Below the pieces are notes generated by a model, which was not told where the DNA came from, searched no databases, and was given only the letters and a program-made list of their open reading frames with translations. Made by a program: the position numbers and the translations under genes. This document shows positions 1-17,179 of a stretch of DNA of 17,179 bases, in pieces; positions within the stretch are counted from its first letter, which is position 1, and every line of letters starts with the position of its first letter. Source of the DNA: a virus (Duplodnaviria; Heunggongvirae; Uroviricota; Caudoviricetes). Location of the stretch: the IMG/VR virus record IMGVR_UViG_2537562215_000014; one strand, written 5' to 3'.

Positions 1-1224
1 GTGGCACGGACAACACGTCCTCTGACCAACACTGAAATTCTGCGGACTAAAGCTTTAGAGAAGGATCTAACACTGCATGATGGCGAGGGGCTTTTCCTGA
101 TAGTGAAAACAAACGGGAAAAAACTCTGGCGTTTCCGTTATCAACGTCCAACAACAAAACAGCGAACAATGATGGGGCTTGGTGCCTTCCCTGCCTTATC
201 GCTTGGTGATGCCCGAAGGTTAAGGGCTGAATACCTTTCCTTATTAGCCAATGGAATTGACCCGCAAATACAAGCTGAAGTTGCAGAGGAGCAGCAGAAA
301 ATCGTGCTTAACAGTATTTTTTCAGCGGTCGCCTCTAACTGGTTCTTGCTCAAAAGCAAAAGTGTTACTCCTGATTACGCAAAGGATATTTGGCGCTCAT
401 TGGAAAAAGACGTACTCCCTGCTATTGGCGAGATCCCCGTTCAGCAAATCAAAGCCCGAACACTAGTTGAAGCACTTGAACCAATCAAAGCTCGCGGAGC
501 ACTGGAAACAGTTCGTCGCCTAGTACAACGTATTAACGAAATAATGATTTATGCGATTAACACTGGTTTGATTGATACTAATCCAGCATCAGGCATTGGT
601 ATGGCTTTTGAAAAACCCAAAAAGCAAAACATGCCAACACTGCGGCCTGAAGAGTTACCTAAGCTGATGCGTTCTTTAGCTATGTCAAATCTTTCTATTC
701 CAACTCGCTGTCTAATTGAATGGCAACTCCTGACACTTGTACGCCCATCTGAAGCTGCCGGTGCTCGATGGGTAGAGATCGATCTTGAAACAAAACTATG
801 GACAATTCCCGCAGAACGGATGAAAGCCAAGCGTGAGCACATTGTTCCTTTATCACCACAAGCGTTAAATATACTCGATGTTATGAAGCCAATTAGTGGC
901 CACCGAGAATTCATTTTTCCCAGCAGATGTGACCCGAAGAAGTCAATGAACAGTCAAACGGCGAATGCTGCTTTGAAACGGATAGGTTATGGAGGTAAAC
1001 TGGTTGCCCATGGAATGCGCTCAATAGCCAGCACGGCAATGAATGAATTTGGATTCAACCCAGATGTAATTGAAGCTGCACTTGCTCATATTGATAAAAA
1101 TGAAGTTCGACGCGCGTACAACCGCTCAGTTTATCTTACTCAGCGTAAAGAATTGATGGAATGGTGGGGGGAACAATGTGTTTCGCAATTCTCATCTATT
1201 AGAAATAAGTGGCCCGTCTCCTAA
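1..1224 (+). CDS. int: P4-family tyrosine integrase (CP4-57/IntA-like); begins with GTG at window base 1, so the true start may lie upstream
   Basis: 407-aa ORF. N-terminal arm-binding pattern LHDGEGLFLIVKTNGKKLWRFRY; C-terminal catalytic region RPSEAAGARW ... HGMRSIASTAM ... RRAYNRSVYL (Arg, His-x-x-Arg, Tyr). N-terminus MARTTRPLTNTEI closely resembles my recollection of E. coli IntA. Sits at the element end, reading inward. Confidence 0.92.
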   Translation: MARTTRPLTNTEILRTKALEKDLTLHDGEGLFLIVKTNGKKLWRFRYQRPTTKQRTMMGLGAFPALSLGDARRLRAEYLSLLANGIDPQIQAEVAEEQQKIVLNSIFSAVASNWFLLKSKSVTPDYAKDIWRSLEKDVLPAIGEIPVQQIKARTLVEALEPIKARGALETVRRLVQRINEIMIYAINTGLIDTNPASGIGMAFEKPKKQNMPTLRPEELPKLMRSLAMSNLSIPTRCLIEWQLLTLVRPSEAAGARWVEIDLETKLWTIPAERMKAKREHIVPLSPQALNILDVMKPISGHREFIFPSRCDPKKSMNSQTANAALKRIGYGGKLVAHGMRSIASTAMNEFGFNPDVIEAALAHIDKNEVRRAYNRSVYLTQRKELMEWWGEQCVSQFSSIRNKWPVS

Positions 1225-1267
1225 TTTGGTAGTTTTGTTCATTTGAGATACATAGCAAGGATTTGAA

Positions 1268-2371
1268 ATGTACATTCAAGATATTCCTAAAGATTCAAAA
1301 TTTTGGGTTGTTCGATCTGGTGATGGCGGTATGTTTTATGACCACTTTGTGCACAACTCCATAGCAGCTATTGGGCACATTGACGCTATGGAATTTAGCG
1401 ATCAGACCCTCAGTAATAAAGATGAAGTGATTAAACTCGTTTATAATTACAAACAAACTTTGCTTGAAAAAAAGGAAACACTTGCATCTGCATCTAATAA
1501 AGCAGGCCAAGTTCTACGTTTCATTAATGAAATGTCAGTCGGTGATATAATTATAACTCTAGATGCAAGGAGAATAGTGGTCGGCAGGATCATATCTGGT
1601 CCTTATAAAGATATGGAAAATGTAACATTACTCAATGTTGATGGAACAACAGATGAAAAATTGCTTAAATTTACCCTTAGACGTAAAGTTGAATGGGGAA
1701 AAACGCAGTTTCGTGACAAACTTCCATTAGCCATAAATAATAGTTTCAGGGCTAATCAAACTGTTTTCTCAGCAAACGAGCACTGGAAAGAGCTTAATCA
1801 CTGGTTATCTGTTGCATTTATATCAGATAATGAAGCTTATATTTCCTCACGGATTGAGCAAACAGAAGGGATTAACAATCTTGACATTGCTCAATACTCC
1901 ATAATAATAAATAAAATTGAAGCTATTGCTCAAACAATCGCTAACAATGACAACTATCATTTCGATGATGATAAATTATTATCTCTCTTTGAAGATACAT
2001 ATAAAGAACTAAGAAAAAGTAGAACATTTACGGTAACGACACAACAGGTATTTCTTTCACCAGGAGATCTTTGGGCAAAAATATCTGGAAGCCGTAAAAA
2101 AAGCCTGTTAGTTATCTGCACATTTCTTATAATGTTCAATATTGAGCCATCTTTCGCAGATGAAAATGACAAAATATTTTTCGACAACAACTATGAAGCA
2201 ATATCTTTATTAATTAATAAAGTAAAACATGATGAAAACTTTGAGGAAGTAAAAAATGGATTAGCATTAAAAGTTCCTGCACAAAAACTAAACACAAAAA
2301 ACACCTCTACAAACCCCAATAAAAAACGCTATGATGATGATGTAGAACCAGACGACTTTGAAGGCATTTAA
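1268..2371 (+). CDS. hypothetical protein, cargo gene A (367 aa, soluble, acidic C-terminal tail); no family assignable by eye
   Basis: ATG at 1268 preceded by AAGGA (1256..1260, 7-nt spacing). Long uninterrupted ORF in visibly AT-rich DNA, where chance ORFs are rare. Starts 43 nt after the int stop. No Walker A, HNH or GS..DxD motif seen. Confidence 0.85.
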   Translation: MYIQDIPKDSKFWVVRSGDGGMFYDHFVHNSIAAIGHIDAMEFSDQTLSNKDEVIKLVYNYKQTLLEKKETLASASNKAGQVLRFINEMSVGDIIITLDARRIVVGRIISGPYKDMENVTLLNVDGTTDEKLLKFTLRRKVEWGKTQFRDKLPLAINNSFRANQTVFSANEHWKELNHWLSVAFISDNEAYISSRIEQTEGINNLDIAQYSIIINKIEAIAQTIANNDNYHFDDDKLLSLFEDTYKELRKSRTFTVTTQQVFLSPGDLWAKISGSRKKSLLVICTFLIMFNIEPSFADENDKIFFDNNYEAISLLINKVKHDENFEEVKNGLALKVPAQKLNTKNTSTNPNKKRYDDDVEPDDFEGI

Positions 2372-2375
2372 GAGG

Positions 2376-3029
2376 ATGATGAAGTTCATAAAAAAATGGT
2401 GGGATAACCATGATAAATCTAATAATTTTTTATCAGGTATCCATTACATCGTCATTTCGCTAGCTATCATAATTGGTGGCGCGTGGTCGTTGTATACCTT
2501 TGACGCATTACAAATGGCCAAAAATGCGGAAATCCAACTAAAAAAGGCTAACGAAGATTTAAAACAAATAAAAGAGCAAATTAAGGGCACTGACTCTAGC
2601 AGTATTGCTATTAATGTTATCCCGTTAAAAACACAGCTAGGAATGATTATTAATGTAACCATAAAAAATAACGGCAAACGACCATTATCCTTTGACACAT
2701 CCAAAGGAGCTTTAACTGTGTACAAAGTAAGCGCAAATGGCGATAAAGTTGAACAATCTCAATCTTTTACACCAAATCTCTATACATCTTTGAGAGATAA
2801 AAAACACTATCCAGAATCAAAAAGTAAATCATTATCAAAGACACATGTTTTAATAGGAGCAGAAAAAACCCTTAGCTATATTGTTGGATTAAATAAGCCA
2901 GGCGTTTATTATATTACATTTAGGTCAACACCAGATGATAATTTTGACACAGAAGAATTGAAAAACAAAAAACCTGTAGAATGGTTCGCTTCTTCATATG
3001 TTGAAATTACCCCACAAAAATATAAATAA
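2376..3029 (+). CDS. hypothetical bitopic membrane protein, cargo gene B (~217 aa; track ORF starts at TTG 2358, ATG 2376 or 2379 more likely)
   Basis: ATG 4 nt after the gene A stop (TAA 2369..2371), with AAGAGG at 2370..2375. Basic N-terminus MMKFIKKWWDNHDK, one hydrophobic helix LSGIHYIVISLAIIIGGAWSLYTF (about nt 2430..2498), then a charged heptad-like segment and a beta-rich C-terminal domain. AT-rich like gene A. Confidence 0.8.
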   Translation: MMKFIKKWWDNHDKSNNFLSGIHYIVISLAIIIGGAWSLYTFDALQMAKNAEIQLKKANEDLKQIKEQIKGTDSSSIAINVIPLKTQLGMIINVTIKNNGKRPLSFDTSKGALTVYKVSANGDKVEQSQSFTPNLYTSLRDKKHYPESKSKSLSKTHVLIGAEKTLSYIVGLNKPGVYYITFRSTPDDNFDTEELKNKKPVEWFASSYVEITPQKYK

Positions 3030-3335
3030 AAAAAATAAGAAGCACACAAATGTTTTTATAGCCTAAAAAACCGCCACAATATTTAACAGCCACATTAAAA
3101 CACATGCATTATGTTAATGCATTAAATGAAATTAATCCTCCATCCACTCCGTAAAAATAACACTATCATAAACACATCAATAGAGTCATCCAAAACACAA
3201 AAATAACTTTAACTCAATAATATTAAACATTCCCCTTTCTAATCACTACTCTAACTTATTGTCGTAGATGAAGCGAGCAAACTCAATTGCGCTCTCAGAC
3301 TTTGAAAAAATTGAACACATCAACATTTGCGCGCA

Positions 3336-3354
3336 GTGCTTTCCCCGCCTCGCC
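3336..3354 (-). other. cos site: P2/P4-type 19-nt cohesive end (GGCGAGGCGGGGAAAGCAC on the minus strand)
   Basis: Plus strand reads GTGCTTTCCCCGCCTCGCC, the exact reverse complement of the P2/P4 cohesive-end 19-mer as I recall it. It lies downstream of psu, as in P4, inside a GC-rich block (3330..3500). Confidence 0.65.
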
Positions 3355-3518
3355 CGCCCGCTTTGCAGGGCGGTTTTAATGCAGTTGCACTGACACGCTC
3401 AGGCCGCGCCGGGAATGGCGTGTTTTGTTGATAATGGGGCGGGAAAACGCATGCAAAGTCATGCACCTTATCGATGCATGGCTTTTTTCAGTAAAAACAA
3501 GCGGGTTTTCGGGGAATT

Positions 3519-4091
3519 TTACACAGACTGACGTGATGCCAGTTGCGCACTTTTACGCGAAAAAATCATGTTCTGCGCAGGGGTGAATTTTTCACGGCAG
3601 TCATCCACCGAAGCCGCGTCAGGCCTGAATCCGATGGTCGTTAAAATGTCGCTATCCTGTGCGGAATAATTAATTTTTTCCCCCTTCGCAAGCCAGGACA
3701 GAAGGGCTTCACGCAAGGCATCTGTGGCACGCTGTATGGCACAGTTTCGGGCAATGGCCGTCAGTTCACTGTAGCCCATCAGCTCCGGTGCCAGTGCGGC
3801 CGCCAGTACTGTGCCGTGCTGCTGCATAAAATCATTCAGCCGGTCGCGGATGCTGATGTGCTGAACGGCTTCATGCGAACGAATATAACGACCGGCGGCC
3901 TGATTCACCTGCCATTTTCTGACTTCGATAATATTGCGTAATTCGTCCAGGCGACTGACGTTTCTGCCTTCTCCTGACAGAAGCCGCAGGTATTCCTGTT
4001 CGGCCGCTGCCAGCTCATTTTTGCGTTGCAGCCATGCTGCTTTGTTATTCTGACAGGTGTCAAAGGCCTGCTGTAAGGCTGTGCTTTCCAT
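3519..4091 (-). CDS. psu: Psu, polarity suppression / capsid decoration protein (Rho antagonist)
   Basis: 190 aa, the same length as P4 Psu. N-terminus MESTALQQAFDTCQNNKAAWLQRK matches my recollection of P4 Psu. Last gene of the sid-delta-psu operon. Confidence 0.88.
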   Translation of the reverse strand: MESTALQQAFDTCQNNKAAWLQRKNELAAAEQEYLRLLSGEGRNVSRLDELRNIIEVRKWQVNQAAGRYIRSHEAVQHISIRDRLNDFMQQHGTVLAAALAPELMGYSELTAIARNCAIQRATDALREALLSWLAKGEKINYSAQDSDILTTIGFRPDAASVDDCREKFTPAQNMIFSRKSAQLASRQSV

Positions 4092-4164
4092 CGTTATCTC
4101 TTTCTCATCATGCTGAAGAATAAAAATACGGTGTGCGGCGACGGCTGGTGTTAACCGGCAGCCC

Positions 4165-4665
4165 TCATTCCAGACGCAGCGAATATGATTGTGTTTTTAA
4201 CCGTACTGGCGGCAGTTCCTGTTTTTCATGCAGGCTTTCTGCCAGTTCGTCCGGTGTGACCGGGCGGACAATGAAGCGGTTGATGGTCTGAAGCGTTTTA
4301 AACACCAGACCACAGCCCGGATCCGTGCACACATAAAAACGCTCGGTGACTTCCTGAGACAGACGCCGCGATGTTCTTGACAGTGCAAGGCCTTTACATC
4401 TCCGACAACAATATCCGGTAACAAGCATTCTTTTCGGGCGTTTCATACTGCCGGAGGCTGACGTCAGTGAATCGCGGTATCTCTGTTTGCCTGAAATGTA
4501 TTCCATTCCTGAATCTTTACTGTCAGAGAAAAAGCTTTCACTCGCTTCAAATGTCGCAGAGCAATAAATATTCCGGCACTGTGCAATCATTATCTTGGTG
4601 CCATCGTCCATGAAATGTGCGCGGCGGGTGTGAGCAACATGTCCACACGACGGGCAGTAAATCAT
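4165..4665 (-). CDS. delta: Delta, late-gene transactivator (tandem Ogr-like zinc-finger modules)
   Basis: 166 aa (P4 Delta is 166 aa). Two Ogr-type Cys motifs: CPSCGH...CRNIYCSATF and CCRRCKG...CTDPGCGLVF. Start codon overlaps the sid stop (ATGA at 4662..4665). Confidence 0.88.
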   Translation of the reverse strand: MIYCPSCGHVAHTRRAHFMDDGTKIMIAQCRNIYCSATFEASESFFSDSKDSGMEYISGKQRYRDSLTSASGSMKRPKRMLVTGYCCRRCKGLALSRTSRRLSQEVTERFYVCTDPGCGLVFKTLQTINRFIVRPVTPDELAESLHEKQELPPVRLKTQSYSLRLE

Positions 4666-5396
4666 GACAGCAGTCCTCTGGCCTTAAGCTCTGCTCCCTG
4701 CTGGTCTATTTTGTCCTGCCACACCTTGCGCTGTGCCGGTGTGCCTGCCACCTCATAATCCATGTGCGGAAGTGTTGCCGCTGACAGTCCGGTCAGCCGG
4801 AGAACCGGCTCGCCGCTGAGGCTGATTTGCATCTGTTTAATTTTCTGTTCCAGCGATGATTTCACCTGCTGCATGACAGCCTTATCGGGTGCGACGTAGC
4901 CCTGATGGCCGGTGGTGTTGGCGAGCGGATTTTCCTGTACCAGAATGCTCAGATGCATTGCCCGGACAAGCGCCTCACAGGTTTCATTCAGGGCGTGTTC
5001 CAGCTCATGCTCTGCATACAGACTCAGAAGGTGATGATGTGCCTTCCGGTAGGCGGTGGCCGTGCTGTCACACGCCCCTTTCAGGCGTTCACGTTCAAAA
5101 TTCAGCACCACGGCCAGATTGTCATATTCCTGTACCAGCTCCCGGCGTGCCACGCGCTCAATGTGGCGCTGTTTCAGCTCGTCGCTCAGGACACCACCGG
5201 CTGCACGAAAGGATGTGCGCCAGTCATCAGCGTCATTTCCGTCGGCCTGCGCCAGCGCATTTTTTTCCTGCTCTGCCCGTTCAATGGCCGTGACGGTCTC
5301 ATCCATCAGTCGGGCGTTCTCAAGGTGGGCGGCTCTGGCCTTTTCCAGTTGTGCCAGTGCGGGTTGCAGATATTCAGGGATGGTGTTGTCAGACAT
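4662..5396 (-). CDS. sid: Sid, external capsid size-determination scaffold protein
   Basis: Track ORF starts at GTG 5414. ATG at 5396 gives 244 aa (P4 Sid is 244 aa) and has GAGGAG 8 nt upstream. Alpha-helical, Ala/Glu/Leu-rich composition. First gene downstream of the late-promoter dyad. Confidence 0.85.
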   Translation of the reverse strand: MSDNTIPEYLQPALAQLEKARAAHLENARLMDETVTAIERAEQEKNALAQADGNDADDWRTSFRAAGGVLSDELKQRHIERVARRELVQEYDNLAVVLNFERERLKGACDSTATAYRKAHHHLLSLYAEHELEHALNETCEALVRAMHLSILVQENPLANTTGHQGYVAPDKAVMQQVKSSLEQKIKQMQISLSGEPVLRLTGLSAATLPHMDYEVAGTPAQRKVWQDKIDQQGAELKARGLLS

Positions 5397-5468
5397 TTTC
5401 CGGCTCCTCGTCACTTCAGGTTAAGAAAATTGTGACGTACACCGGACAACAACACGACGCATTGCAGA

Positions 5469-5486
5469 TGTGCCAGCCCTGACACA
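5469..5486 (-). promoter_or_regulatory. Psid late promoter activator site (Ogr/Delta-type TGT-N12-ACA dyad)
   Basis: TGT GCCAGCCCTGAC ACA. Centre is ~55 bp upstream of the inferred sid transcription start (~5420), matching P2/P4 late-promoter architecture. Confidence 0.6.
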
Positions 5487-5565
5487 GGAGACTCATCCTC
5501 AGACCGGCAAGCCAGGAAAAGGTCGCAGGAAAAACCGGCTTACTGTTTGTTTTTTTATATTTTAC

Positions 5566-5669
5566 TGTTCACCTCTGTTCACCATAAGAAAAAAGATAAG
5601 TAATACAGTAAGTTAAAGGGTGAATAATCGCAGTAATGACTGTTCACCGTCTGTTCACCACTGTTCACC
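5566..5669. repeat. Replication-origin-like iteron cluster: five direct TGTTCACC octamers plus one degenerate inverted copy
   Basis: TGTTCACC at 5566, 5576, 5641, 5652 and 5662; GGTGAATA at 5618. P4 alpha binds type I iterons of this sequence. Lies about 4.8 kb from the crr repeats. Confidence 0.65.
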
Positions 5670-5828
5670 CGTTGATGGGCTTTTTGTGCTGTTTATTACT
5701 GTTTGTTTTTATTAATTCGCCGGGAATGAATAAGAAAAAACGATTTGTATTTCACTATAAAAATTACGAATTGCTTTAAGTGGCTTTAAATGACTTTAAG
5801 TGGAGATGAACAAAAAATACACAAGCAT

Positions 5829-5846
5829 TGTAAGGCTGCCGGAACA
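5829..5846 (+). promoter_or_regulatory. PLL-like late leftward promoter activator site (TGT-N12-ACA dyad)
   Basis: TGT AAGGCTGCCGGA ACA. Placing the start ~55 bp downstream (~5892) puts it ~396 bp upstream of the PLE-like start (~6288), close to the ~400 bp spacing I recall for P4 PLL/PLE. Confidence 0.5.
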
Positions 5847-5948
5847 AATCCCCCCTGTTGCGTCTGCCAAAAATATTCACAAAATAAAGCGCTACCCGAA
5901 GCCGGACGGACTTATCCGGTGCTGTATGGACATTAACGAGGTAGCCCG

Positions 5949-6215
5949 ATGCAAGCTGTTTTTTCTTCCCCGTCTCCCGCCCCTGTGACGCCACTGATGC
6001 CGCTGCCGGACATCACGCAGGAGCGTTTTTTACGTCTGCCGGAAGTGATGCACCTGTGCGGCCTGTCACGCTCGACAATCTATGAACTCATCCGTAAGGG
6101 GGAATTTCCGCCGCAGGTGAGTCTTGGCGGTAAAAATGTGGCCTGGCTGCACTCTGAAGTCACCGCATGGATGGCCGGGCGCATTGCCGGACGCAAACGG
6201 GGGTATGACGCATGA
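5949..6215 (+). CDS. vis: Vis/AlpA-family helix-turn-helix regulator (excisionase-like)
   Basis: 88 aa. Motif [47 protein letters not shown] is typical of AlpA/Vis. GAGG lies 9 nt upstream of the ATG. First gene after the PLL-like site. Confidence 0.85.
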
Positions 6216-6250
6216 TGATGCCCGCTCTGCAAAAACTCCCTTTTTCTGGC

Positions 6251-6280
6251 TTGCCTTTTTCCGGCATTTGCGGATATAGT
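6251..6280 (+). promoter_or_regulatory. PLE-like sigma70 promoter (-35 TTGCCT, 18-bp spacer, -10 TATAGT)
   Basis: Hexamers at 6251..6256 and 6275..6280, immediately downstream of vis, where P4 PLE is expected. Confidence 0.5.
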
Positions 6281-6343
6281 CTTTCCGTTGCCGCAAAATC
6301 GGCAGCCGGGCGTGAGAACCCGTGTAACTCGAAGGCGACATAT

Positions 6344-6365
6344 GACGCGCCATGCGTCTTTTTTT
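6344..6365 (+). terminator. Short hairpin followed by U7 in the PLE leader (candidate attenuator / immunity terminator)
   Basis: GACGCG-CCA-TGCGTC (6-bp stem including one G-U) followed by TTTTTTT at 6359..6365, ~60 nt downstream of the predicted PLE start. Confidence 0.35.
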
Positions 6366-6604
6366 GTGTCGCAATCAACGCCACAGAGCGCCAGATTATG
6401 GTGTGGCGTGTGGTTTGCCGTGCAGGTATGATCCTGTTCGCAATCGCATGTTATGCCACTGAGTCAATGGTAGCTCAGGCGGGGCAGCCTCCGGGCTGGC
6501 CGGTATTCTTCGAGGCCGGTATTCTCACCCCCGTCTGGGCTATCGCCATCGAGCGTGAGAACTCCGGCGATAGCAGTTATTTGCTACTCGAAGGAGGCTG
6601 CCTT

Positions 6605-6802
6605 ATGGCTACAACCCTTACCCCCTCACACCCTGAATTTGTCTTTGTGTTTGCGGCTGTCCGTCGCGCAGACCGTCATCCCCGTATCTGTATGCTTCGC
6701 ACCGTCGCCGGTGATGAACGCAGTGCCCGCCGTTCCTTTGTCCGTGACTATGTGCTCTCCCTTGCTGCCCGTCTGCCGGTGGTGGAGGTGTCCCGTGCGT
6801 AA
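6605..6802 (+). CDS. small hypothetical protein of the left operon (65 aa)
   Basis: ATG at 6605 with AAGGAGG (6591..6597, 7-nt spacing). Its stop overlaps the next gene's start, suggesting translational coupling. Confidence 0.55.
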
Positions 6803-7082
6803 TAAAAAAGCCCCTCAGACCGTCTCAGCGCGTCATGACGCCTGTGAACACCTCAGCATTGAGGCTTACCATAAGCTCAACCGCGCCAGCGCCGTATCCC
6901 AGTTTGTTGGGGGTGATTTGATTCACCGTGAACTCTCCGGCCTGCATCAGCTCTACATTCCGCATATTTTCAGCTACCTGAATGAAGATATTGATTTTGT
7001 GCTGAATGAGCTGAAAGCCAAAGGCCTGTGCCGCGATTTTCTCGCCCAGCAGAAAGACCGGGGAGACAGGACGCATGTTTGA
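6795..7082 (+). CDS. small protein (~95 aa) at the position of P4 epsilon; function inferred from position only
   Basis: GTG at 6795 with GGAGGTG 4 nt upstream. The stop overlaps the start of the 151-aa ORF (7075). The track ORF is longer (starts 6555), but the SD supports the 6795 start. Confidence 0.5.
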
Positions 7083-7530
7083 TTTTCCCCAGCCCGGTGA
7101 GATTTACCGTTCTGCCGGTTTTCCCGATGTGGCCGTGGTCGGCATTCTGGAAGACGGTATTCCGTGGGAAATGCCGTACCGCTGCCCGGACATTGTCTGG
7201 AACCCGTACCGCCGTAAATTCAGTATCCTTGTGCGTATCCTCGCCGACGGGCGCACCACAGACATCCCGCTGGGGCGTTTTCTGCGGGAATTTACCTGTG
7301 ACCGTCCTGACCTGTTTAAACGCAGCCCCGTAAACCGGCATGCGGTACTGAAAGAAATGGCCGGAGACCCGGAATTACAGAAATGGCGGGAGAAATATCT
7401 GGATATTTACCCGCAGGACCCTGTTCCGGTCAGCCGGGCGGCACCGGTGGCGCGGGAATGGCGGGAAATTCCCCGCACGGAGCCTGACCCGGAAATCACC
7501 CCGGATAACAGTTACCGCAATTATCTGTAA
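7075..7530 (+). CDS. hypothetical protein (151 aa; same length and position as P4 orf151)
   Basis: ATG at 7075 with GGGAGA upstream. Codon usage matches the backbone; co-oriented in the alpha operon. Confidence 0.75.
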   Translation: MFDFPQPGEIYRSAGFPDVAVVGILEDGIPWEMPYRCPDIVWNPYRRKFSILVRILADGRTTDIPLGRFLREFTCDRPDLFKRSPVNRHAVLKEMAGDPELQKWREKYLDIYPQDPVPVSRAAPVAREWREIPRTEPDPEITPDNSYRNYL

Positions 7531-7665
7531 TTAAAAAACGACACCCGAAAAATTAAATGTGCGTATTCGCGCAGGGATACGCACGTCTTCAGGAGACGCA
7601 GATATGCCTTATCAGTTAATGCAACCGGCACGGAATGCAGTCATCTGTCACAGGGAGGAAAGCAA

Positions 7666-7986
7666 ATGAAAACACCCTTACCGCCCGTCTTACGCGCAGC
7701 CCTTTACCGTCGTGCTGTCGCCTGTGCCTGGCTGACCGTGTGCGAACGTCAGCACCGCTACCCGCATCTCACCCTTGAATCACTGGAGGCGGCCATCGCC
7801 GCTGAGCTGGAGGGCTTTTATCTGCGCCAGCACGGTGAGGAAAAAGGGCGTCAGATAGCCTGTGCCCTGCTGGAAGATTTAATGGAATCCGGCCCCCTGA
7901 AGGCCGCGCCGTCGCTGTCCTTTCTCGGGCTGGTTGTGATGGATGAACTCTGTGCCCGTCACATAAAAGCGCCGGTACTGCACTGA
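7666..7986 (+). CDS. hypothetical protein (106 aa; same length and position as P4 orf106)
   Basis: ATG at 7666 with GGGAGG 7 nt upstream. Lies immediately upstream of alpha. Confidence 0.75.
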
Positions 7987-8000
7987 AGGAGAACAACACC

Positions 8001-10334
8001 ATGAAAATGAACGTAACCGCCACCGTCAGCCATGCGCTCGGCCACTGGCCGCGTATTCTCCCGGCGCTGGGGATTCAGGTGCTGAAAAACCGTCATCAGC
8101 CCTGTCCGGTCTGTGGCGGGAGGGACCGCTTCCGTTTTGATGACAGGGAGGGGCGCGGCACCTGGTACTGCAATCAGTGTGGTGCCGGTGACGGCCTGAA
8201 ACTGGTTGAAAAGGTGTTTGGTGTTTCCCCGTCCGACGCGGCCGCAAAGGTGGCTGCCGTGACCGGCAGTCTGCCCCCGGCTGACCTGGCAGTGACGGCC
8301 GCCGCCGTTGCTGAAACAGACGCTGCCCGGAAGAACGCCGCCGCACTGGCACAAACCCTGATGGCAAAAACCCGTCCCGGAACCGGTAACGCCTACCTGA
8401 CCCGCAAGGGCTTTCCCGGCCGGGAATGCCGGATGCTGACCGGCACACACAGAGCCGGTGGCGTGAGCTGGCGCGCCGGTGACCTTGTGGTGCCACTGTA
8501 TGACGACAGCGGCGAACTGGTTAACCTTCAGTTAATCAGTGCTGACGGCCGTAAGCGCACCCTGAAAGGCGGACAGGTCAGGGGCACCTGTCACATCCTT
8601 GAAGGACAGAATCAGACCGGAAAACGTCTGTGGATAGCGGAGGGATACGCGACCGCACTTACCGTACATCACCTGACCGGTGAAACGGTGATGGTGGCGC
8701 TTTCTTCCGTGAACCTCCTTTCTCTGGCCAGCCTTGCCCGGCAGAAGCATCCGGCCTGTCAGATTGTCCTTGCCGCTGACCGTGACCTCAGCGGTGACGG
8801 CCAGAAAAAAGCCGCCGCAGCCGCAGATGCGTGTGAAGGTGTTGTTGCACTGCCGCCGGTCTTCGGTGACTGGAATGATGCCTTCACGCAGTACGGCGGG
8901 GAAGCCACCCGTAAGGCCATTTATGATGCTATCCGGCCACCGGCTGAAAGCCCGTTCGACACCATGAGCGAAGCAGAGTTTTCCGCCATGAGTACCAGCG
9001 AAAAGGCCATGCGTATCTATGAGCATTACGGCGAGGCGCTCGCGGTTGATGCCAACGGCCAGCTTCTGTCCCGTTATGAAAATGGTGTCTGGAAGGTGCT
9101 GCCGCCACAGGACTTTGCCCGGGATGTGGCCGGGCTGTTTCAGCGTCTGCGCGCGCCGTTCTCCTCCGGGAAGGTGGCCTCCGTGGTGGACACCCTGAAG
9201 CTGATTATTCCGCAGCAGGAAGCCCCCTCCCGCCGCCTGATTGGCTTTCGTAACGGCGTGCTCGACACGCAGAACGGCACGTTCCACCCGCACAGTCCGT
9301 CACACTGGATGCGTACCCTGTGCGATGTGGATTTCCCCCCGCCGGTGGAAGGGGAAACGCTGGAAACCCACGCCCCCGCGTTCTGGCGCTGGCTTGACCG
9401 TGCCGCCGGTGGCCGTGCGGAAAAACGCGACGTGATTCTGGCCGCACTGTTTATGGTGCTGGCAAACCGCTACGACTGGCAGCTCTTTCTGGAGGTGACC
9501 GGTCCCGGCGGCAGCGGCAAAAGTATCATGGCCGAAATAGCCACCCTGCTGGCCGGGGAGGATAACGCCACGTCGGCCACCATTGAGACGCTGGAATCCC
9601 CGCGTGAACGTGCCGCGTTAACTGGCTTCTCACTGATACGCCTGCCGGACCAGGAAAAATGGAGCGGCGACGGTGCCGGACTCAAGGCCATCACCGGCGG
9701 CGATGCGGTGTCCGTGGATCCGAAATACCGGGATGCGTACTCCACGCATATCCCGGCGGTGATTCTGGCCGTGAACAATAACCCGATGCGCTTCACCGAC
9801 CGCAGCGGCGGCGTGTCACGCCGGCGGGTGATTATTCACTTCCCGGAACAGATAGCCCCGCAGGAGCGCGACCCGCAGCTTAAGGACAAAATCACCCGCG
9901 AGCTGGCGGTCATCGTGCGTCACCTGATGCAGAAGTTCAGCGACCCGATGCTCGCCCGGTCACTGCTTCAGTCCCAGCAGAACTCAGACGAGGCGCTGAA
10001 CATCAAACGGGATGCCGACCCGACGTTTGATTTTATCGGCTATCTGGAAACCCTGCCGCAGACCAGCGGCATGTATATGGGGAACGCCAGTATCATCCCG
10101 CGTAATTACCGTAAATACCTCTATCACGCCTATCTGGCCTACATGGAGGCAAACGGCTACCGGAATGTACTCAGTCTGAAAATGTTCGGGCTGGGGCTGC
10201 CGGTGATGCTGAAGGAATACGGGCTGAATTACGAGAAGCGCCATACCAAACAGGGGATACAGACCAACCTGACGCTGAAAGAGGAAAGCTACGGCGACTG
10301 GCTGCCAAAATGTGACGACCCTGCAACAGCCTGA
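8001..10334 (+). CDS. alpha: Alpha: primase-helicase replication protein with origin binding (P4 alpha family)
   Basis: 777 aa, the same length as P4 alpha. N-terminal zinc motif CPVCGG...YCNQCG, TOPRIM-like EGYATAL and AADRD, Walker A GPGGSGKS (nt 9501..9524). AAGGAG RBS. Followed by TGTTCACC iterons. Confidence 0.92.
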   Translation: MKMNVTATVSHALGHWPRILPALGIQVLKNRHQPCPVCGGRDRFRFDDREGRGTWYCNQCGAGDGLKLVEKVFGVSPSDAAAKVAAVTGSLPPADLAVTAAAVAETDAARKNAAALAQTLMAKTRPGTGNAYLTRKGFPGRECRMLTGTHRAGGVSWRAGDLVVPLYDDSGELVNLQLISADGRKRTLKGGQVRGTCHILEGQNQTGKRLWIAEGYATALTVHHLTGETVMVALSSVNLLSLASLARQKHPACQIVLAADRDLSGDGQKKAAAAADACEGVVALPPVFGDWNDAFTQYGGEATRKAIYDAIRPPAESPFDTMSEAEFSAMSTSEKAMRIYEHYGEALAVDANGQLLSRYENGVWKVLPPQDFARDVAGLFQRLRAPFSSGKVASVVDTLKLIIPQQEAPSRRLIGFRNGVLDTQNGTFHPHSPSHWMRTLCDVDFPPPVEGETLETHAPAFWRWLDRAAGGRAEKRDVILAALFMVLANRYDWQLFLEVTGPGGSGKSIMAEIATLLAGEDNATSATIETLESPRERAALTGFSLIRLPDQEKWSGDGAGLKAITGGDAVSVDPKYRDAYSTHIPAVILAVNNNPMRFTDRSGGVSRRRVIIHFPEQIAPQERDPQLKDKITRELAVIVRHLMQKFSDPMLARSLLQSQQNSDEALNIKRDADPTFDFIGYLETLPQTSGMYMGNASIIPRNYRKYLYHAYLAYMEANGYRNVLSLKMFGLGLPVMLKEYGLNYEKRHTKQGIQTNLTLKEESYGDWLPKCDDPATA

Positions 10335-10341
10335 CCCACCT

Positions 10342-10365
10342 GACCGGCATCTGCCGGTCTTTTTT
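10342..10365 (+). terminator. rho-independent terminator of the alpha operon
   Basis: GACCGGC-ATCT-GCCGGTC stem-loop followed by TTTTTTT, 8 nt after the alpha stop. Confidence 0.7.
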
Positions 10366-10380
10366 TATCCCGACATCCCC

Positions 10381-10685
10381 CGAAGGTGAACAATCCACTG
10401 TTCACCCTTCACCGTATATTCACCCGTTATCACACTGAAATTAAAAGAGAAAAACGAAAGGTGAACAGTGTGAACAATCAAATCAAAAAAAACTTTTTTC
10501 TTCCTGAGTGATTTCAGTACGGGGGATTAATCACCGGTATGAGTCACACCGGCAGAATGCCGGAGGTGAAGAATCGAATGTTCACCCTTCACCCATTATT
10601 CACCACCTATCACTCTGAAATAAAAGGAGAAAAAAGAAAGGTGAACAGTGTGAACAGTTCTTTCGAAAAAAAATTTTTTTCCTGT
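10381..10685. repeat. crr-like cis replication region: two ~125-bp direct repeats (10381..10505 and 10561..10685), each with TGTTCACC/GGTGAACA iterons
   Basis: The two copies are near-identical at 180-bp periodicity. Each contains GGTGAA, TGTTCACC, TTCACC, and GGTGAACAGTGTGAACA followed by an A-run/T-run. Matches the P4 crr description (two ~120-bp repeats next to alpha). Confidence 0.7.
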
Positions 10686-10818
10686 ACGATATAGCATCAA
10701 TCCAAGTAAAAATGCGCTTTCATTTCACATTAACTTACAGCCATTGGTATACGATTAGGTATACGCACAAAAACTGAATTAAACAAAATCATTAAAAATC
10801 AAAGCAATACAATATTTA

Positions 10819-10840
10819 TTCAAACTCCGCCAGCCCACCA
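10819..10840 (+). other. candidate attR core (resembles the 3' end of ssrA/tmRNA, ending CCACCA)
   Basis: TTCAAACTCCGCCAGCCCACCA versus my recollection of the ssrA 3' end TTCAACTCCCGCCAGCTCCACCA (a similar but imperfect match by eye). No T-arm partner upstream, so it is a fragment, not a gene. Upstream are two direct GGTATACG copies (10746, 10758) that could be integrase arm sites. Confidence 0.35.
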
Positions 10841-10967
10841 ATCATGATTGGACGGTATAAGGACAACACCAATAAAAACAGGAAGTTAGCAGTCTCAGCA
10901 GGACACCGACCAGACGGTGAAGAGACATAAAAGGATACGCAAAGGAGCCGCGGCTCCTGGTGACATG

Positions 10968-10991
10968 AAAGCCCACAGATGTGGGCTTTTT
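10968..10991. terminator. hairpin terminator between the element and the autotransporter 3' end (possibly bidirectional)
   Basis: AAAGCCCAC-AGAT-GTGGGCTTT followed by TT on the plus strand; on the minus strand it lies 10 nt after the autotransporter stop (11001). Confidence 0.55.
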
Positions 10992-11000
10992 CGTTGATGG

Positions 11001-11372
11001 TCAGAACGACCAGTTCACACCAGCTACCCCGTTCCACGGGGATTCCACACCGGCACCATGGCTATACCCCACCCCAAGATGCCCGCTTAACGTACTGCTG
11101 AATGAGGCTTTAATACCTGCCTGGTATATTCCACGTCTGCCCGACAAATCATTGACGAAATTACCGTCACTATTCACTTTCACCCGGTTATCATCGACAA
11201 ATTCTTTGCGCACAGCCGCCTTCAGCCACGGCTCAACTTCCATACCGTTCCCCAGACGCATGTTGTAACTCAGCGTTGCACCCAGTTCACGATATAAACT
11301 GCGGGTATCGACTGATTTCGATTCCATGCCATTGGATAAATGATATTCAGGGTTATCAGCGATGAACCCCCG
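11001..11372 (-). pseudogene. autotransporter beta-barrel C-terminal segment, out of frame with the passenger segment (ends ...GVNWSF)
   Basis: C-terminal aromatic-x-Phe motif NWSF typical of type Va autotransporters. This frame is open back to the stop at 11373..11375; it is shifted relative to the 626-aa ORF at a C5 run (11367..11371). Confidence 0.75.
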
Positions 11373-13294
11373 TTAACGATGCATACGGCGTCAGGTTCCA
11401 GTTACCATCGGTAAATCGCATCCCGGTTTCAATGTGACCGCCCAGCCCGTTGCTGCGATAACTGCCGTTGGCGGCTCCACCGCTGCCAACCGTGGAGTCG
11501 CGAGCTTCGGTACCTGCTAATACCAATAAATTACCGCCATTTTCCAGCAACATATTGGTCGCTAAATTGCCGGAAATGGAAAAAGTGCCGTACTGGTGAG
11601 TACCGCTGATTTCAATACCGTTAGCCGTGCTCGTCTGGAGAGCGGCACCGCTGTTCTGGACGATATCTGTCGCTTTGCCATTATCGTTAACTGTCAGCGT
11701 ACCGCCTTCATTGATCTTTGTTTTTATTGCCTCTCCGTTAGCTGAAACTGTTTGTATTCCGCCGTCGTTAATCGTTGTCTCATTCGCCACCCCCTCGACG
11801 ATTTGTTCGCCGCCGGTGAGCGTCGTGCCTGTCGCAGTGGCTTTTGTTTTGACGATCTCCCGTCCGCCCGTATTGACCTGTGTTTTGTCAGAAGAGGTGT
11901 CTGACTCCATGGTTAACACGCCGCCATTTGCCAGCAGGATATTGTTCGCCGCACCCTGCTCGATGCTGAACGCGACGCCATCCGCGCGTGTTCCTGTGAC
12001 CCGCGTCGCCCTGGTGGTTGCAACCAAAGCGTCCTGGCTACTCTGCTGTATCCCCGTTGCGCTGCCTTTCTCCCGCACATCGAGTGTGCCGCCGTCATTA
12101 AGCACCGAGTTTTCAGCCAGACCGCCCTCATTAACTACCTGTGAACACCCATTAATAATGGAACCTTCCGCTGTCCCGTTTGCCATAATTTGTTGTAGGC
12201 CAGAGACGATATCGGTATTGATTGCCTTACCATAATTCTGAACGGTTTGCGTGCCACCATTGATGTGTGTTTTCTCTGTTGACCCACCATCAACAATTTG
12301 TTCACCACTTTCGATATTTGCCTCAGTGGCTAATCCATATACCGTTTGCTTGCCACCTTTGATATTTGCTTTATCAGAAGTGGCACTGGCATATATTGTT
12401 TGGGTGCCAGCACTATTGAGTACAGTGCCAACATCTTTTCCATAAACATCCATTTTGCCGTTGGCATTAATAATCGTATCAACTGCCCGGGAACCAGTGA
12501 CGACTGTTAATGAGCCAGCGTTTTCCAGCACTACATTTTTAGCTTCTGAATTCCTGATGTAGAAAGCATCACCATAACTGTTGGTTCCTTCGATAAGGGT
12601 TCCGGAAGTTGTGGAAGCAATTAATGCGCCGCCGGATTGTTGCTCAACATGCTTAGCCTCACCACCGTCCTGAACCTCCAGAACGCCACCATTATTAAGT
12701 CTGGTGGTATCTGTTTTAGCCTCCTTCTGGACAATCAGCTTACCGCCAGCATCAACGGTAGTATTTTTCGCCGAGGTTTTAGCCACTACCGTCAGTTCGC
12801 CGGTATTTTCCAGCACAACATAATTAGCCTCCCCTCCGGTAATAGTGAAGTGAGAGAGCTTGTTGTATCCTTCAATATCAGTCCCTGCGCCCGTGTTGGC
12901 AACTAAAGCACTGCCCGTCTCCTGGTTAACCCCATGTGCAATACCACCGGTATAGACAATCAGCGAGCCTCCGGCGCTAATATTGCTGCCAGTTGCCGTA
13001 CCATCTTTCTCAACAACCTGCCGGCTCCCGGAGGATATAATTGTCGTGTCAGCTTTCCCGCCGCTCTTGATATTTTGCGTTCCGCCGTTGATATTGGTAC
13101 CCGTGGCAATACCATGATTATTAATATTCTGTGTACCACCATTGATTATGGTATTGGTCGCGTTTCCGGTAACATCCATTACCCCGCCGTTATCTATTCG
13201 GGTCGCATCAGCTTTAGCATTCGTTAAAACTGACATTGTTCCTTTATCTTTAATAATCGTCTTGTTTGCCGAACCATATGCGTTTATGTCTAAA
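11356..13294 (-). pseudogene. AIDA-type autotransporter adhesin, passenger segment distal to the IS insertion
   Basis: 626-aa ORF rich in ~19-aa Gly/Thr/Asn passenger repeats (TTINGG, GGTQ, NVVLENAG). The reading frame continues seamlessly across the IS insertion point. Confidence 0.8.
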
Positions 13295-13302
13295 TGTAGT
13301 GG

Positions 13303-15523
<2,221 letters not shown>

Positions 15524-15861
15524 AAATTTCATCCTCTGAAAAGTGAATACTGAGTAGCGTTTAAGCGACCTTAGCTTTGCTGCAACATCAGCCCACAGGC
15601 ACCAGACCAGGGGATTCATCCTGAAGAGACAGCGCAAGTGTATTGTGTTCACCGCTCATCAAAGACATCATGATGAAATGATGATATTCCGCATAAGAAT
15701 GAGGCATTTTTTAAACGCAGTGCGCTGAAGTGTGGTTGGATAAAAAAGTCAATCCATTCAGGAAATACGGGCGTATTCTTTTCTTTCGACAATGAGGCCG
15801 TTGGCAAAATAAAATGATTTACATAATCGTTTCTGATGAATATCTTCTGCTCACATAAAAA

Positions 15862-16190
15862 TCACACAATAACTTTGAGATCGCAGATTGTTTTACTTTT
15901 ACAGCATTCGTCCCCCCATTGTTGGGCAAATATAGATTGGGCCAGAGCACGAAAGTTAATACCACGTTTGCACAGCTCCTCCAACAGCACGACAAGATGC
16001 CACATACTGCGCCCCAGTCGGTTCGGTTTACAGACTACCCGTGCGTCCACCGCCGATAATGTCCTGACCAGTTTTTTCAGTCCGGACCTCCTGCCACGGT
16101 TTTACGTTGAAGTGGTAACCCTGAGCACGCAGTTCTTCAGTCAGGCGTGGTGTACCGTAACCCTATTATTGATGGGTAAGATCAAAAATA
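15862..16190 (-). pseudogene. serine recombinase (DNA invertase, Pin/Hin/Gin family) remnant
   Basis: Fragment ...VVCKPNRLGRSMWHLVVLLEELCKRGINFRALAQSI aligns with the invertase catalytic-domain motif VVWKLDRLGRS...L..EL.ERGI.F.SL.DSIDT. In-frame stop and frameshift upstream; diverged C-terminus. Confidence 0.65.
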
Positions 16191-16289
16191 CTTTCAGGCA
16201 GCTAAGGAAAGTTGAACCAGACATTAGAATAAATATTTCAACCAATTACAGCACCAATTCAGACACCGCCAGCTCAACAAATAAATCAA

Positions 16290-16322
16290 GGGGTTACGTG
16301 AAAGCGTAGCCCCTTTTTCTTT
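16290..16322. terminator. hairpin terminator downstream of the AT-rich pentapeptide-like ORF (possibly bidirectional)
   Basis: GGGGTTACG-TGAAAG-CGTAGCCCC followed by TTTTTCTTT on the plus strand. On the minus strand it lies ~115 nt after the ORF stop (16436). Confidence 0.55.
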
Positions 16323-16435
16323 GGTAGTGGCAGCAAAATGGTTGTAGTGTAAAAAATAATCCCGTTTAATCAATCAATAATACATATTGTTTCAATCTAC
16401 GTTATTATCTCTTTGTAAAAATAGCCATTTATTAA

Positions 16436-17179
16436 TCATTGAAAACTGCTTTTAGAACTTGATACAACGGGACTAGTCACAACAGGACTATTCTCAACGG
16501 GATCATCCTCAGAGGAACTATCATCAAAGTCATCATCCATAAATAAAATATCATCGAATGGTGCCACGCCCGTGATGAGTTTTATTTTATTATTACGATC
16601 AGTCAAGACTCCACTTAAACCGTTTTCGCTCACAGGTTTTAATGATTTTTCATTACTCTTGTTGTAAGCAGGCGCATTAAAAATACACGGAGTATCAAGA
16701 TCAAACAATGACGTTCCCCAGTTCACATATTGAATATCATAGTTACTGAAGTTCTGTCCAGAAAAGAAGCATCCCTTAAAATCCAATCCACCTAAATTAT
16801 ATAAACCATCCTCTTCTTTTTGGAGAGTAATGTTAATTTTGGCTATCTCCCGGACATCATCGCCATTTTTATATTTGAATACCGTTTCAAGATTTTCCCC
16901 ACACAGTTTGACTTCTGGAAATAATTTGAAATCAAAGCCTATATTATTATGTATCAACGTAGATGAACAAAAGATGGAGAAAGCTTGCAGTGCTGAATTA
17001 TAGCTTTCGATTTTATCCTGAGGCTGCGCTCTTGGTAAAAACTCATAGCAACATTCATAAAAATTAAGTAGAAACTCTGAAGACCTTCCATTTTTATCAA
17101 ATAATATCCCCTTGAACTCATTCACAAACGCATCTTTTTTTTCTTGAATATCTATGTGGTGTTCCTTTGACTCTGACAA
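16436..17179 (-). CDS. hypothetical AT-rich protein with pentapeptide-repeat-like core and acidic/Ser-rich C-terminus; 5' end lies beyond the window
   Basis: 247 codons open to the window edge in AT-rich DNA. Segment NLGGLDFKGCFFSGQNFSNYDIQYVNWGTSLFDLD resembles pentapeptide repeats. C-terminus DDDFDDSSSEDDPVENSPVVTSPVVSSSKSSFQ. Confidence 0.6.
   Translation of the reverse strand: MSESKEHHIDIQEKKDAFVNEFKGILFDKNGRSSEFLLNFYECCYEFLPRAQPQDKIESYNSALQAFSIFCSSTLIHNNIGFDFKLFPEVKLCGENLETVFKYKNGDDVREIAKINITLQKEEDGLYNLGGLDFKGCFFSGQNFSNYDIQYVNWGTSLFDLDTPCIFNAPAYNKSNEKSLKPVSENGLSGVLTDRNNKIKLITGVAPFDDILFMDDDFDDSSSEDDPVENSPVVTSPVVSSSKSSFQ

Follow-up and report, generated by a model that had tools for sequence, protein, structure and literature searches.

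The 17,179-nucleotide stretch of DNA analysed here (hereafter, the window, by which the stretch at its full length is meant; IMG/VR record IMGVR_UViG_2537562215_000014, classified among the Caudoviricetes) carries an element closely related to satellite phage P4, and the present report deals with the intergenic region between two divergently transcribed genes of this element, sid and vis. Positions 3355..10679 of the window are 97.7% identical to P4 (record X51522, 11624..4291, reverse complement), and the sid-vis intergenic stretch of 552 base pairs (bp) is 97.4% identical to its P4 counterpart and has the same length. An initial annotation of this DNA had taken the region for the part of P4 that contains the promoters Psid and PLL and the origin of replication (ori), and this identification holds up, given the level of identity, the annotations in the P4 record and the flanking genes, sid on the leftward side and vis (ORF88) on the rightward side.

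Layout of the sid-vis intergenic region

The features that were located between the two genes or are predicted there, ordered by position, are as follows.

5397..5948, the sid-vis intergenic region, 552 bp
5421..5423, minus strand, predicted start of Psid, 55 to 56 bp from the dyad centre at 5477.5 and 7 nucleotides after CACAAT
5429..5434, minus strand, predicted -10-like hexamer CACAAT of Psid
5431..5448, second sid-side dyad TGT-N12-ACA, an exact match with its centre at about -17 of Psid, overlapping the -10 hexamer and 38 bp from the distal dyad
5469..5486, activator (Ogr/Delta) dyad of Psid, centre 5477.5, at about -55 of the predicted start
5540..5561, plus strand, copy 1 of a T-rich 22-nucleotide repeat, TTACTGTTTGTTTTTTTATATT, the left flank of the iteron block
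5566..5583, plus strand, ori type I iterons 1 and 2, annotated as 'ori type 1 repeat' in P4 (X51522)
5619..5626, minus strand, inverted sixth type I iteron, degenerate, reading GGTGAATA on the plus strand (GGTGAACA in P4)
5641..5669, plus strand, ori type I iterons 3 to 5, annotated as 'ori type 1 repeat' in P4 (X51522)
5677..5816, A+T-rich stretch of the origin, G+C content of 0.23 to 0.35 in segments of 40 nucleotides
5696..5717, copy 2 of the T-rich 22-nucleotide repeat, on the other side of the iteron block
5829..5846, activator (Ogr/Delta) dyad of PLL, centre 5837.5, at about -55 of the predicted start
5880..5885, plus strand, predicted -10-like hexamer CAAAAT of PLL, within the strongly conserved TATTCACAAAAT
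5891..5894, plus strand, predicted start of PLL, 54 to 57 bp from the dyad centre at 5837.5

The Psid-side dyad at 5469..5486 reads TGTGCCAGCCCTGACACA and the PLL-side dyad at 5829..5846 reads TGTAAGGCTGCCGGAACA, so that both are, as initially proposed, exact matches to TGT-N12-ACA, the consensus of Ogr-dependent late promoters (PMC3931495), with their starts 360 bp apart. The dyad at 5431..5448, closer to sid, had been overlooked. Julien and Calendar are said to have reported in 1995 a Delta site at about -18 in Psid, and the dyad at 5431..5448 is presumably this second Psid site. A Delta-type site at about -18 of PLL was considered as well, and only a degenerate CTG-N12-ACA was found at 5864..5881, for which no claim is made. 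The late genes of P2 and P4 are activated by Delta and Ogr alike (PMC8628076). The cognate activator with Cys4 zinc fingers is encoded within the element itself, by delta, whose product contains two Ogr_Delta domains with two C-X2-C-X22-C-X4-C fingers (Cys motifs at residues 4 and 87); the helper protein Ogr is not encoded within the window and would be supplied by a P2-like phage. A late promoter of this Ogr/Delta-dependent type would also require the alpha subunit of RNA polymerase.

Both arms contain a -10-like element, TCACAA(T/AAAT), approximately 45 bp from the dyad centre. The start predicted from CACAAT on the sid arm is at about 5422 and that predicted from CAAAAT on the vis arm is at about 5892, which gives distances of 55.5 and 54.5 bp, respectively, to the dyad centres. 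According to the P2 record AF063097, a distance of 55 to 58 bp separates the centres of the activator sites from the annotated starts of pP, pO, pV and pF, and from this geometry, along with the conserved -10-like hexamers, we infer that the starts in the P4-type element are located approximately 55 bp from the dyad centres. A consensus scan of 5300..6050 detected no sigma-70 consensus promoter on either strand (there is no -35 element), which fits promoters that need an activator. Mapped starts and Delta footprints of P4 have reportedly been published by Dale in 1986, Deho in 1988, and Julien and Calendar in 1995.

Several additional sequence features were noticed around the promoters. The promoters of the satellite are closer to the consensus than those of the helper P2 (AF063097 3057..3087, 10239..10266 and 17555..17583). 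The predicted PLL leader includes a palindrome, CCGGACGGACTTATCCGG, at 5902..5919, whose CCGG...CCGG arms are kept in every locus with a conserved PLL core and which may form a hairpin in the leader or bind a protein. The motif CCGGAC, found in the proximal dyad of Psid and, as an inverted repeat, in the PLL leader, was evaluated as a candidate Vis box and rejected, its over-representation being modest and the Psid-side copy being lost in diverged loci. Two intergenic open reading frames (ORFs), 5776..5994 on the minus strand and 5800..5988 on the plus strand, are mechanical predictions that find no support and were ignored.

The segment between the dyads contains the iterons. The octamer TGTTCACC occurs on the plus strand at 5566, 5576, 5641, 5652 and 5662, which accounts for all five direct copies that the initial annotation had placed between the dyads, and all five are exact. 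In the window as a whole, 12 copies of this octamer are present compared with 0.76 expected, and none of the 200 shuffled sequences reaches 12. Five further exact copies are located downstream of the alpha gene, at 10385..10647, within the cis replication region (crr), and the last two (12299 and 15646) fall outside of the P4-homologous stretch. The initial annotation missed the inverted sixth iteron at 5619..5626, which differs from the P4 sequence by a single mismatch, a C-to-T change. The iterons are present in the homologous region of P4, where X51522 annotates them as ori type 1 repeats: the record lists these six, which lie inside its rep_origin feature (9086..9809), along with three 'ori type 2 repeats' and crr, all at homologous positions.

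The DNA on the flanks of the iteron block is T-rich and A+T-rich. Copy 1 of the T-rich repeat is kept in diverged loci and shares positions with the element labelled 'put. ori consensus sequence' in record X02534, and the G+C content is 0.25 to 0.30 across 5537..5636 (segments of 40 nucleotides). The crr (10380..10679), which the initial annotation did not mention, consists of two 120-bp direct repeats with type I iterons, lies approximately 4.7-4.8 kb from ori, includes five exact octamers and degenerate copies, and is homologous to the P4 crr at 4291..4590. The alpha protein encoded in between matches, through residues 671-770, the origin-binding domain of P4 alpha, a C-terminal winged helix (PDB 1KA8; E value 1e-63). 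All the components of a putative P4-type, alpha-dependent origin are thus present, namely the iteron cluster, the A+T-rich DNA, crr and alpha with its winged helix. According to work that is attributed to Ziegelin and colleagues in 1993 and to Krevolin and colleagues in 1985, alpha reportedly binds the P4 iterons and replication starts at ori.

Upstream of PLL, on the minus strand at 5771..5799, there are three phased P2 Cox boxes spaced by 10 bp, TTAAAGCAA, TTAAAGCCA and TTAAAGTCA, the only ones found with at most one mismatch to the consensus TTAAA(G/C)NC(A/C); in known targets, the spacing is approximately 10 to 11 bp. These boxes, which were also overlooked initially, coincide with the counterparts (5773..5802) of the three 10-bp elements that the P4 record labels 'ori type 2 repeats'. 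The P2 Cox protein binds upstream of PLL and derepresses P4, and the known Cox targets contain at least six boxes, with a footprint of at least 70 bp (PMC3936717). The three-box array is a predicted binding region for the helper Cox upstream of PLL. No part of the sid-vis region is less conserved among P4-like elements than the Cox-box or type 2 stretch (5771..5802; alignment columns 440-500), and this variability could reflect matching to different helper Cox/Apl proteins.

It is very likely that the sid-vis region (5397..5948) is a P4-type satellite control region in which three cis-acting systems lie side by side. The observations behind this reading are the sequence elements themselves, the homology to P4, the conservation described below and the intact genes for the trans-acting proteins. 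The starts, the binding of proteins and the activation in the following scheme are projected from the P4 and P2 literature and from the geometry of the region. A P2-type helper would supply Ogr and Cox, and the satellite would supply Delta. Psid and PLL would be sigma-70 promoters that lack a -35 element and fire only with a zinc-finger activator on the -55 dyad; the activator at the two -55 dyads would recruit RNA polymerase to both promoters, with Psid transcribing sid-delta-psu and PLL transcribing vis together with the genes for replication and derepression, as far as alpha. During helper-induced derepression, P2 Cox would switch on PLL via the Cox boxes. The C-terminal winged helix of alpha would bind the ori iterons and the crr iterons, and the bound alpha would start replication in the A+T-rich DNA between.

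Conservation among P4-like loci and alternative readings

The region was compared across 22 loci with 15 distinct sequences, nine non-Escherichia genera included: the window, P4, seven Escherichia coli loci with 67 to 93% identity, and 13 loci found through Sid in a search with a three-sequence Sid alignment. Twelve of the Sid-found loci show approximately 60% Sid identity and come from Mangrovibacter, Scandinavium, Enterobacter, Citrobacter, Tatumella, Klebsiella, Raoultella and one 'Vagococcus'; the thirteenth is a near-identical copy (98%) from a metagenome bin labelled Clostridiales. The latter (L012, URND01000141.1, 'uncultured Clostridiales bacterium'), with a Sid 98% identical to that of the window, and the P4-like locus labelled 'Vagococcus sp.' (L023, NZ_JBQPOM010000030.1), with 61% Sid identity, are probably contamination or mis-binned enterobacterial DNA. 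A similar sid-vis sequence is found in 1068 of the 5426 complete E. coli genomes, that is, in about a fifth.

In the Psid dyad, TGT and ACA are invariant and the 12-nucleotide spacer is variable across the 15 distinct sequences. A distance of 81.5 bp separates the centre of this dyad from the sid ATG in most of the loci, the window included (in the rest, it is a few bp off or the start calls are uncertain). At the proximal Psid site (5431..5448), ACA does not vary, and diverged loci carry TCT where the others have TGT. The iteron layout of two direct, one inverted and three direct copies occupies nearly the same coordinates in all loci, the iterons of the diverged loci often being TGTTCACT or TATTCACT. 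The PLL core, TATTCACAAAAT(A/G)AG(C/A)GCTACC, is almost invariant; the exact TATTCACAAAA core is absent in five loci. The upstream PLL dyad always begins 45 bp before the PLL core, and the N12 spacing is restricted to the loci close to P4 and to FG92. The PLL-side dyad is thus conserved in its place and not in its exact spacing, and is less uniformly conserved than the Psid dyad. In L006, L017 and L024-L029, the PLL dyad is TGT-N13-ACA, which can also be read as a 17-bp palindrome with TGT-N11-ACA, and the Psid dyad of the same elements is N12. The number of iterons varies among close relatives: a 10-bp insertion in L010 (E. coli 5132) gives four iterons in the right cluster, and L012 has just two exact copies in the right-hand cluster.

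In the comparison with P4 itself, approximately 15 point differences are found over 581 aligned columns; three of these are spacer differences in the PLL dyad, whose TGT/ACA half-sites are the same in both.

Several observations weigh against the reading of the region as a P4-type control region. The starts at 5421..5423 and 5891..5894 are predicted rather than mapped. Among the loci with approximately 60% Sid identity that retain TATTCACAAAA, the PLL dyad is mostly TGT-N13-ACA or TGT-N11-ACA, and no TGT..ACA variant is found at the PLL dyad position in YDMW, L015 and L018. An exact TGT-N12-ACA is neither necessary nor sufficient, because none of the four annotated late-promoter sites of P2 is an exact match (pO/pP and pF have TGT-N12-CCA, and pV has a different spacing); for the same reason, the exact motif at P2 late promoters was dropped as a positive control and the annotated site centres were used instead. 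TGT-N12-ACA alone is not significantly enriched over the whole window. Finally, this copy carries the rare C-to-T change in the inverted iteron, which may or may not affect origin function. The T form is found in 7 of the 5426 complete E. coli genomes, compared with 898 that have the canonical C form. A measurable effect of the change on copy-number control in this lineage is conceivable but unlikely.

The lack of enrichment could be cited in favour of the view that such short motifs, dyads and octamers alike, have been matched by chance and have no function: TGT-N12-ACA specifies only six bases, and the window contains 8 matches compared with 4.7 expected, a number reached by 20 of the 200 shuffled sequences. 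With so few specified bases and an excess that is not significant over the window, only clustering and conservation carry weight, and both contradict the chance view, which is scarcely credible. Three of the eight dyads fall within 416 bp (5431..5846), where 0.11 would be expected (Poisson P of approximately 2e-4); the Psid half-sites remain invariant around a variable spacer; the octamer enrichment given above is not matched by any shuffled sequence; and the iterons and ori elements are annotated in the P4 record. The rare inverted iteron is also what would be seen if the element were a decaying cryptic prophage that has inherited its cis sites along with an impaired origin, and many P4-like prophages are indeed cryptic (PMC8628076). 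Such decay is quite unlikely here. The comparison with P4 covered seven genes (sid, delta, psu, vis, epsilon, cnr and alpha), each of which is full length, lacks stops and shares 97.9 to 98.9% identity with its P4 counterpart; no damage is seen in the five direct iterons, the two dyads, crr or the cos region; and a single mismatch in one of the six ori iterons is a small change.

The initial annotation had also described replication and late transcription control as interleaved. This is an accurate account of the layout; functional coupling between the two, in contrast, finds no support in the data presented here. Coupling would imply that divergent late transcription under-winds the A+T-rich origin or that iteron-bound alpha tunes Psid and PLL, and the iteron block and the A+T-rich tract do lie wholly between divergent starts that are approximately 470 bp apart, with the order of the Psid dyad, the iterons and the PLL core maintained at near-constant spacing in nine non-Escherichia genera. 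If true, coupling would explain why this order and spacing are kept across those genera. Nothing in the sequence demands it, however: the iterons are at least 80 bp from either activator site and overlap neither promoter, and a compact region passed on by vertical inheritance would be just as likely to keep its spacing. In addition, Diaz-Orejas, Ziegelin, Lanka and colleagues reportedly obtained P4 replication in vitro with alpha, ori and crr and with no host RNA polymerase. On balance, coupling appears unlikely. The reading as a P4-type control region, with its systems adjacent to one another, is the one adopted in what follows.

The satellite element and its surroundings

A stretch of the E. 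coli chromosome NZ_CP145662 is 99.8% identical to positions 1..11486 of the window, and in this chromosome, ssrA immediately precedes the element, just to the left of the integrase gene. The element is a satellite prophage of the P4 type, inserted next to ssrA in the E. coli chromosome. Its genes and other features outside the control region are listed below.

1..1224, plus strand, integrase
1268..2371, plus strand, cargo ORF 1
2376..3029, plus strand, cargo ORF 2
about 3290..3396, cos region
3519..4091, minus strand, psu, polarity suppression and capsid decoration, the last gene of the Psid operon (Pfam Psu, E value 9.8e-89; 98.4% identity to P4 Psu)
4165..4665, minus strand, delta, Ogr/Delta zinc-finger late activator, 166 amino acids (Pfam Ogr_Delta in 2 stretches, E value 6.9e-22; 98.2% identity to P4 Delta)
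4662..5396, minus strand, sid, capsid size-determination scaffold, the first Psid gene, 244 amino acids (98.4% identity to P4 Sid)
5949..6215, plus strand, vis (ORF88), AlpA-family helix-turn-helix regulator/excisionase, the first gene of the PLL transcript (Pfam Phage_AlpA, E value 7.3e-21; 98.9% identity to P4 ORF88)
6212..6802, plus strand, Ash/Icd-like ORF
6274..6326, plus strand, c4-a1b1 (Rfam)
6287..6364, plus strand, isrK (Rfam)
6463..6550, plus strand, C4 antisense RNA, P4 CI RNA family (Rfam)
6795..7082, plus strand, epsilon
7075..7530, plus strand, cnr
7666..7986, plus strand, orf106
8001..10334, plus strand, alpha primase-helicase, 777 amino acids (Pfam Zn_Ribbon_Prim, Toprim, D5_N and Pox_D5; 98.7% identity to P4 alpha)
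10380..10679, crr, cis replication region

The three Rfam matches, which reach the gathering level, lie in the P4 immunity region downstream of vis (6274..6550, plus strand). The two cargo ORFs, between the integrase gene and cos on the plus strand (1268..2371 and 2376..3029), occupy a position that is known in P4-like satellites as a hotspot for defence genes. No Pfam match was obtained for either. Cargo ORF 1 matches the PADLOC candidate-defence models PDC-S02 (best E value 2.7e-18), with an additional, weak match to a model of a type II restriction enzyme, and cargo ORF 2 has no match among the PADLOC or Pfam models.

At the other end of the element, the segment 10819..10991 is 86% identical to the 'tmRNA pseudogene / attP' segment of Escherichia phage LLS (tmRNA, transfer-messenger RNA) and has a terminator-like hairpin at its end. 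Given this resemblance to the attP of phage LLS and the position of ssrA to the left of the integrase gene in NZ_CP145662, we consider this segment the probable right attachment site of the satellite integrated at ssrA. The right-hand part of the window, 11474..17179, is host DNA that matches a frameshifted ypjA/ehaD autotransporter pseudogene of NZ_CP145662. Relative to that chromosome, the window contains an insertion of approximately 1.25 kb at 13297..14552, which holds a match to an IS3-family transposase (13303..13743) and, on the minus strand, a match to the small RNA isrC (14362..14484).

The value of the locus lies only in its correct annotation, by which the 10.9-kb island next to ssrA is recognised as a satellite of the P4 type, apparently intact and equipped with an origin, crr and late promoters that respond to a helper. 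A P2-like helper could mobilise such an element, and its cargo, including the candidate defence gene, could reach other cells in this way.

Comparison with known systems

The organization of P4 around ori, Psid and PLL has been described since the 1980s and 1990s. The region analysed here is that already described architecture, so that the finding is a rediscovery, with nothing new for P4. The P4 region (X51522, approximately 9030..9583) shares with the element the genes, both -55 dyads, the second Psid dyad, the five direct iterons, the type 2 repeats or Cox boxes, and crr; the inverted sixth iteron is GGTGAACA in P4 and GGTGAATA in the element. The element also differs from P4 outside of this region: it has another integrase, uses the ssrA site instead of P4's own attachment site, and carries different cargo where P4 has gop-beta-cII.

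The P4-like satellites of other Enterobacterales (Klebsiella, Raoultella, Citrobacter, Enterobacter, Mangrovibacter and others) share the divergent sid and vis genes, the N12 Psid dyad with an unchanged distance to sid, the 2+1+3 iterons and the PLL core, and differ in the TCT-N12-ACA proximal site, the PLL dyad (mostly N13 or N11) and a Cox stretch of unrelated sequence. In the diverged E. coli loci FG92, 3PT and YDMW, for which the annotation was examined, Delta is a short, single-finger protein of approximately 81 amino acids, in contrast to the two-finger Delta encoded in the window.

The closest counterpart in the helper is the pP/pO region of P2 (AF063097 3016..3127), which, like the region studied here, consists of divergent, activator-dependent promoters of the Ogr/Delta family, with the site centre 55 to 56 bp from each start. 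In P2, a single common site, TGT-N12-CCA, serves both starts, which are 111 bp apart with no origin between them, whereas in the element, each promoter has a dyad of its own, the two dyads are 360 bp apart, and the origin lies in between.

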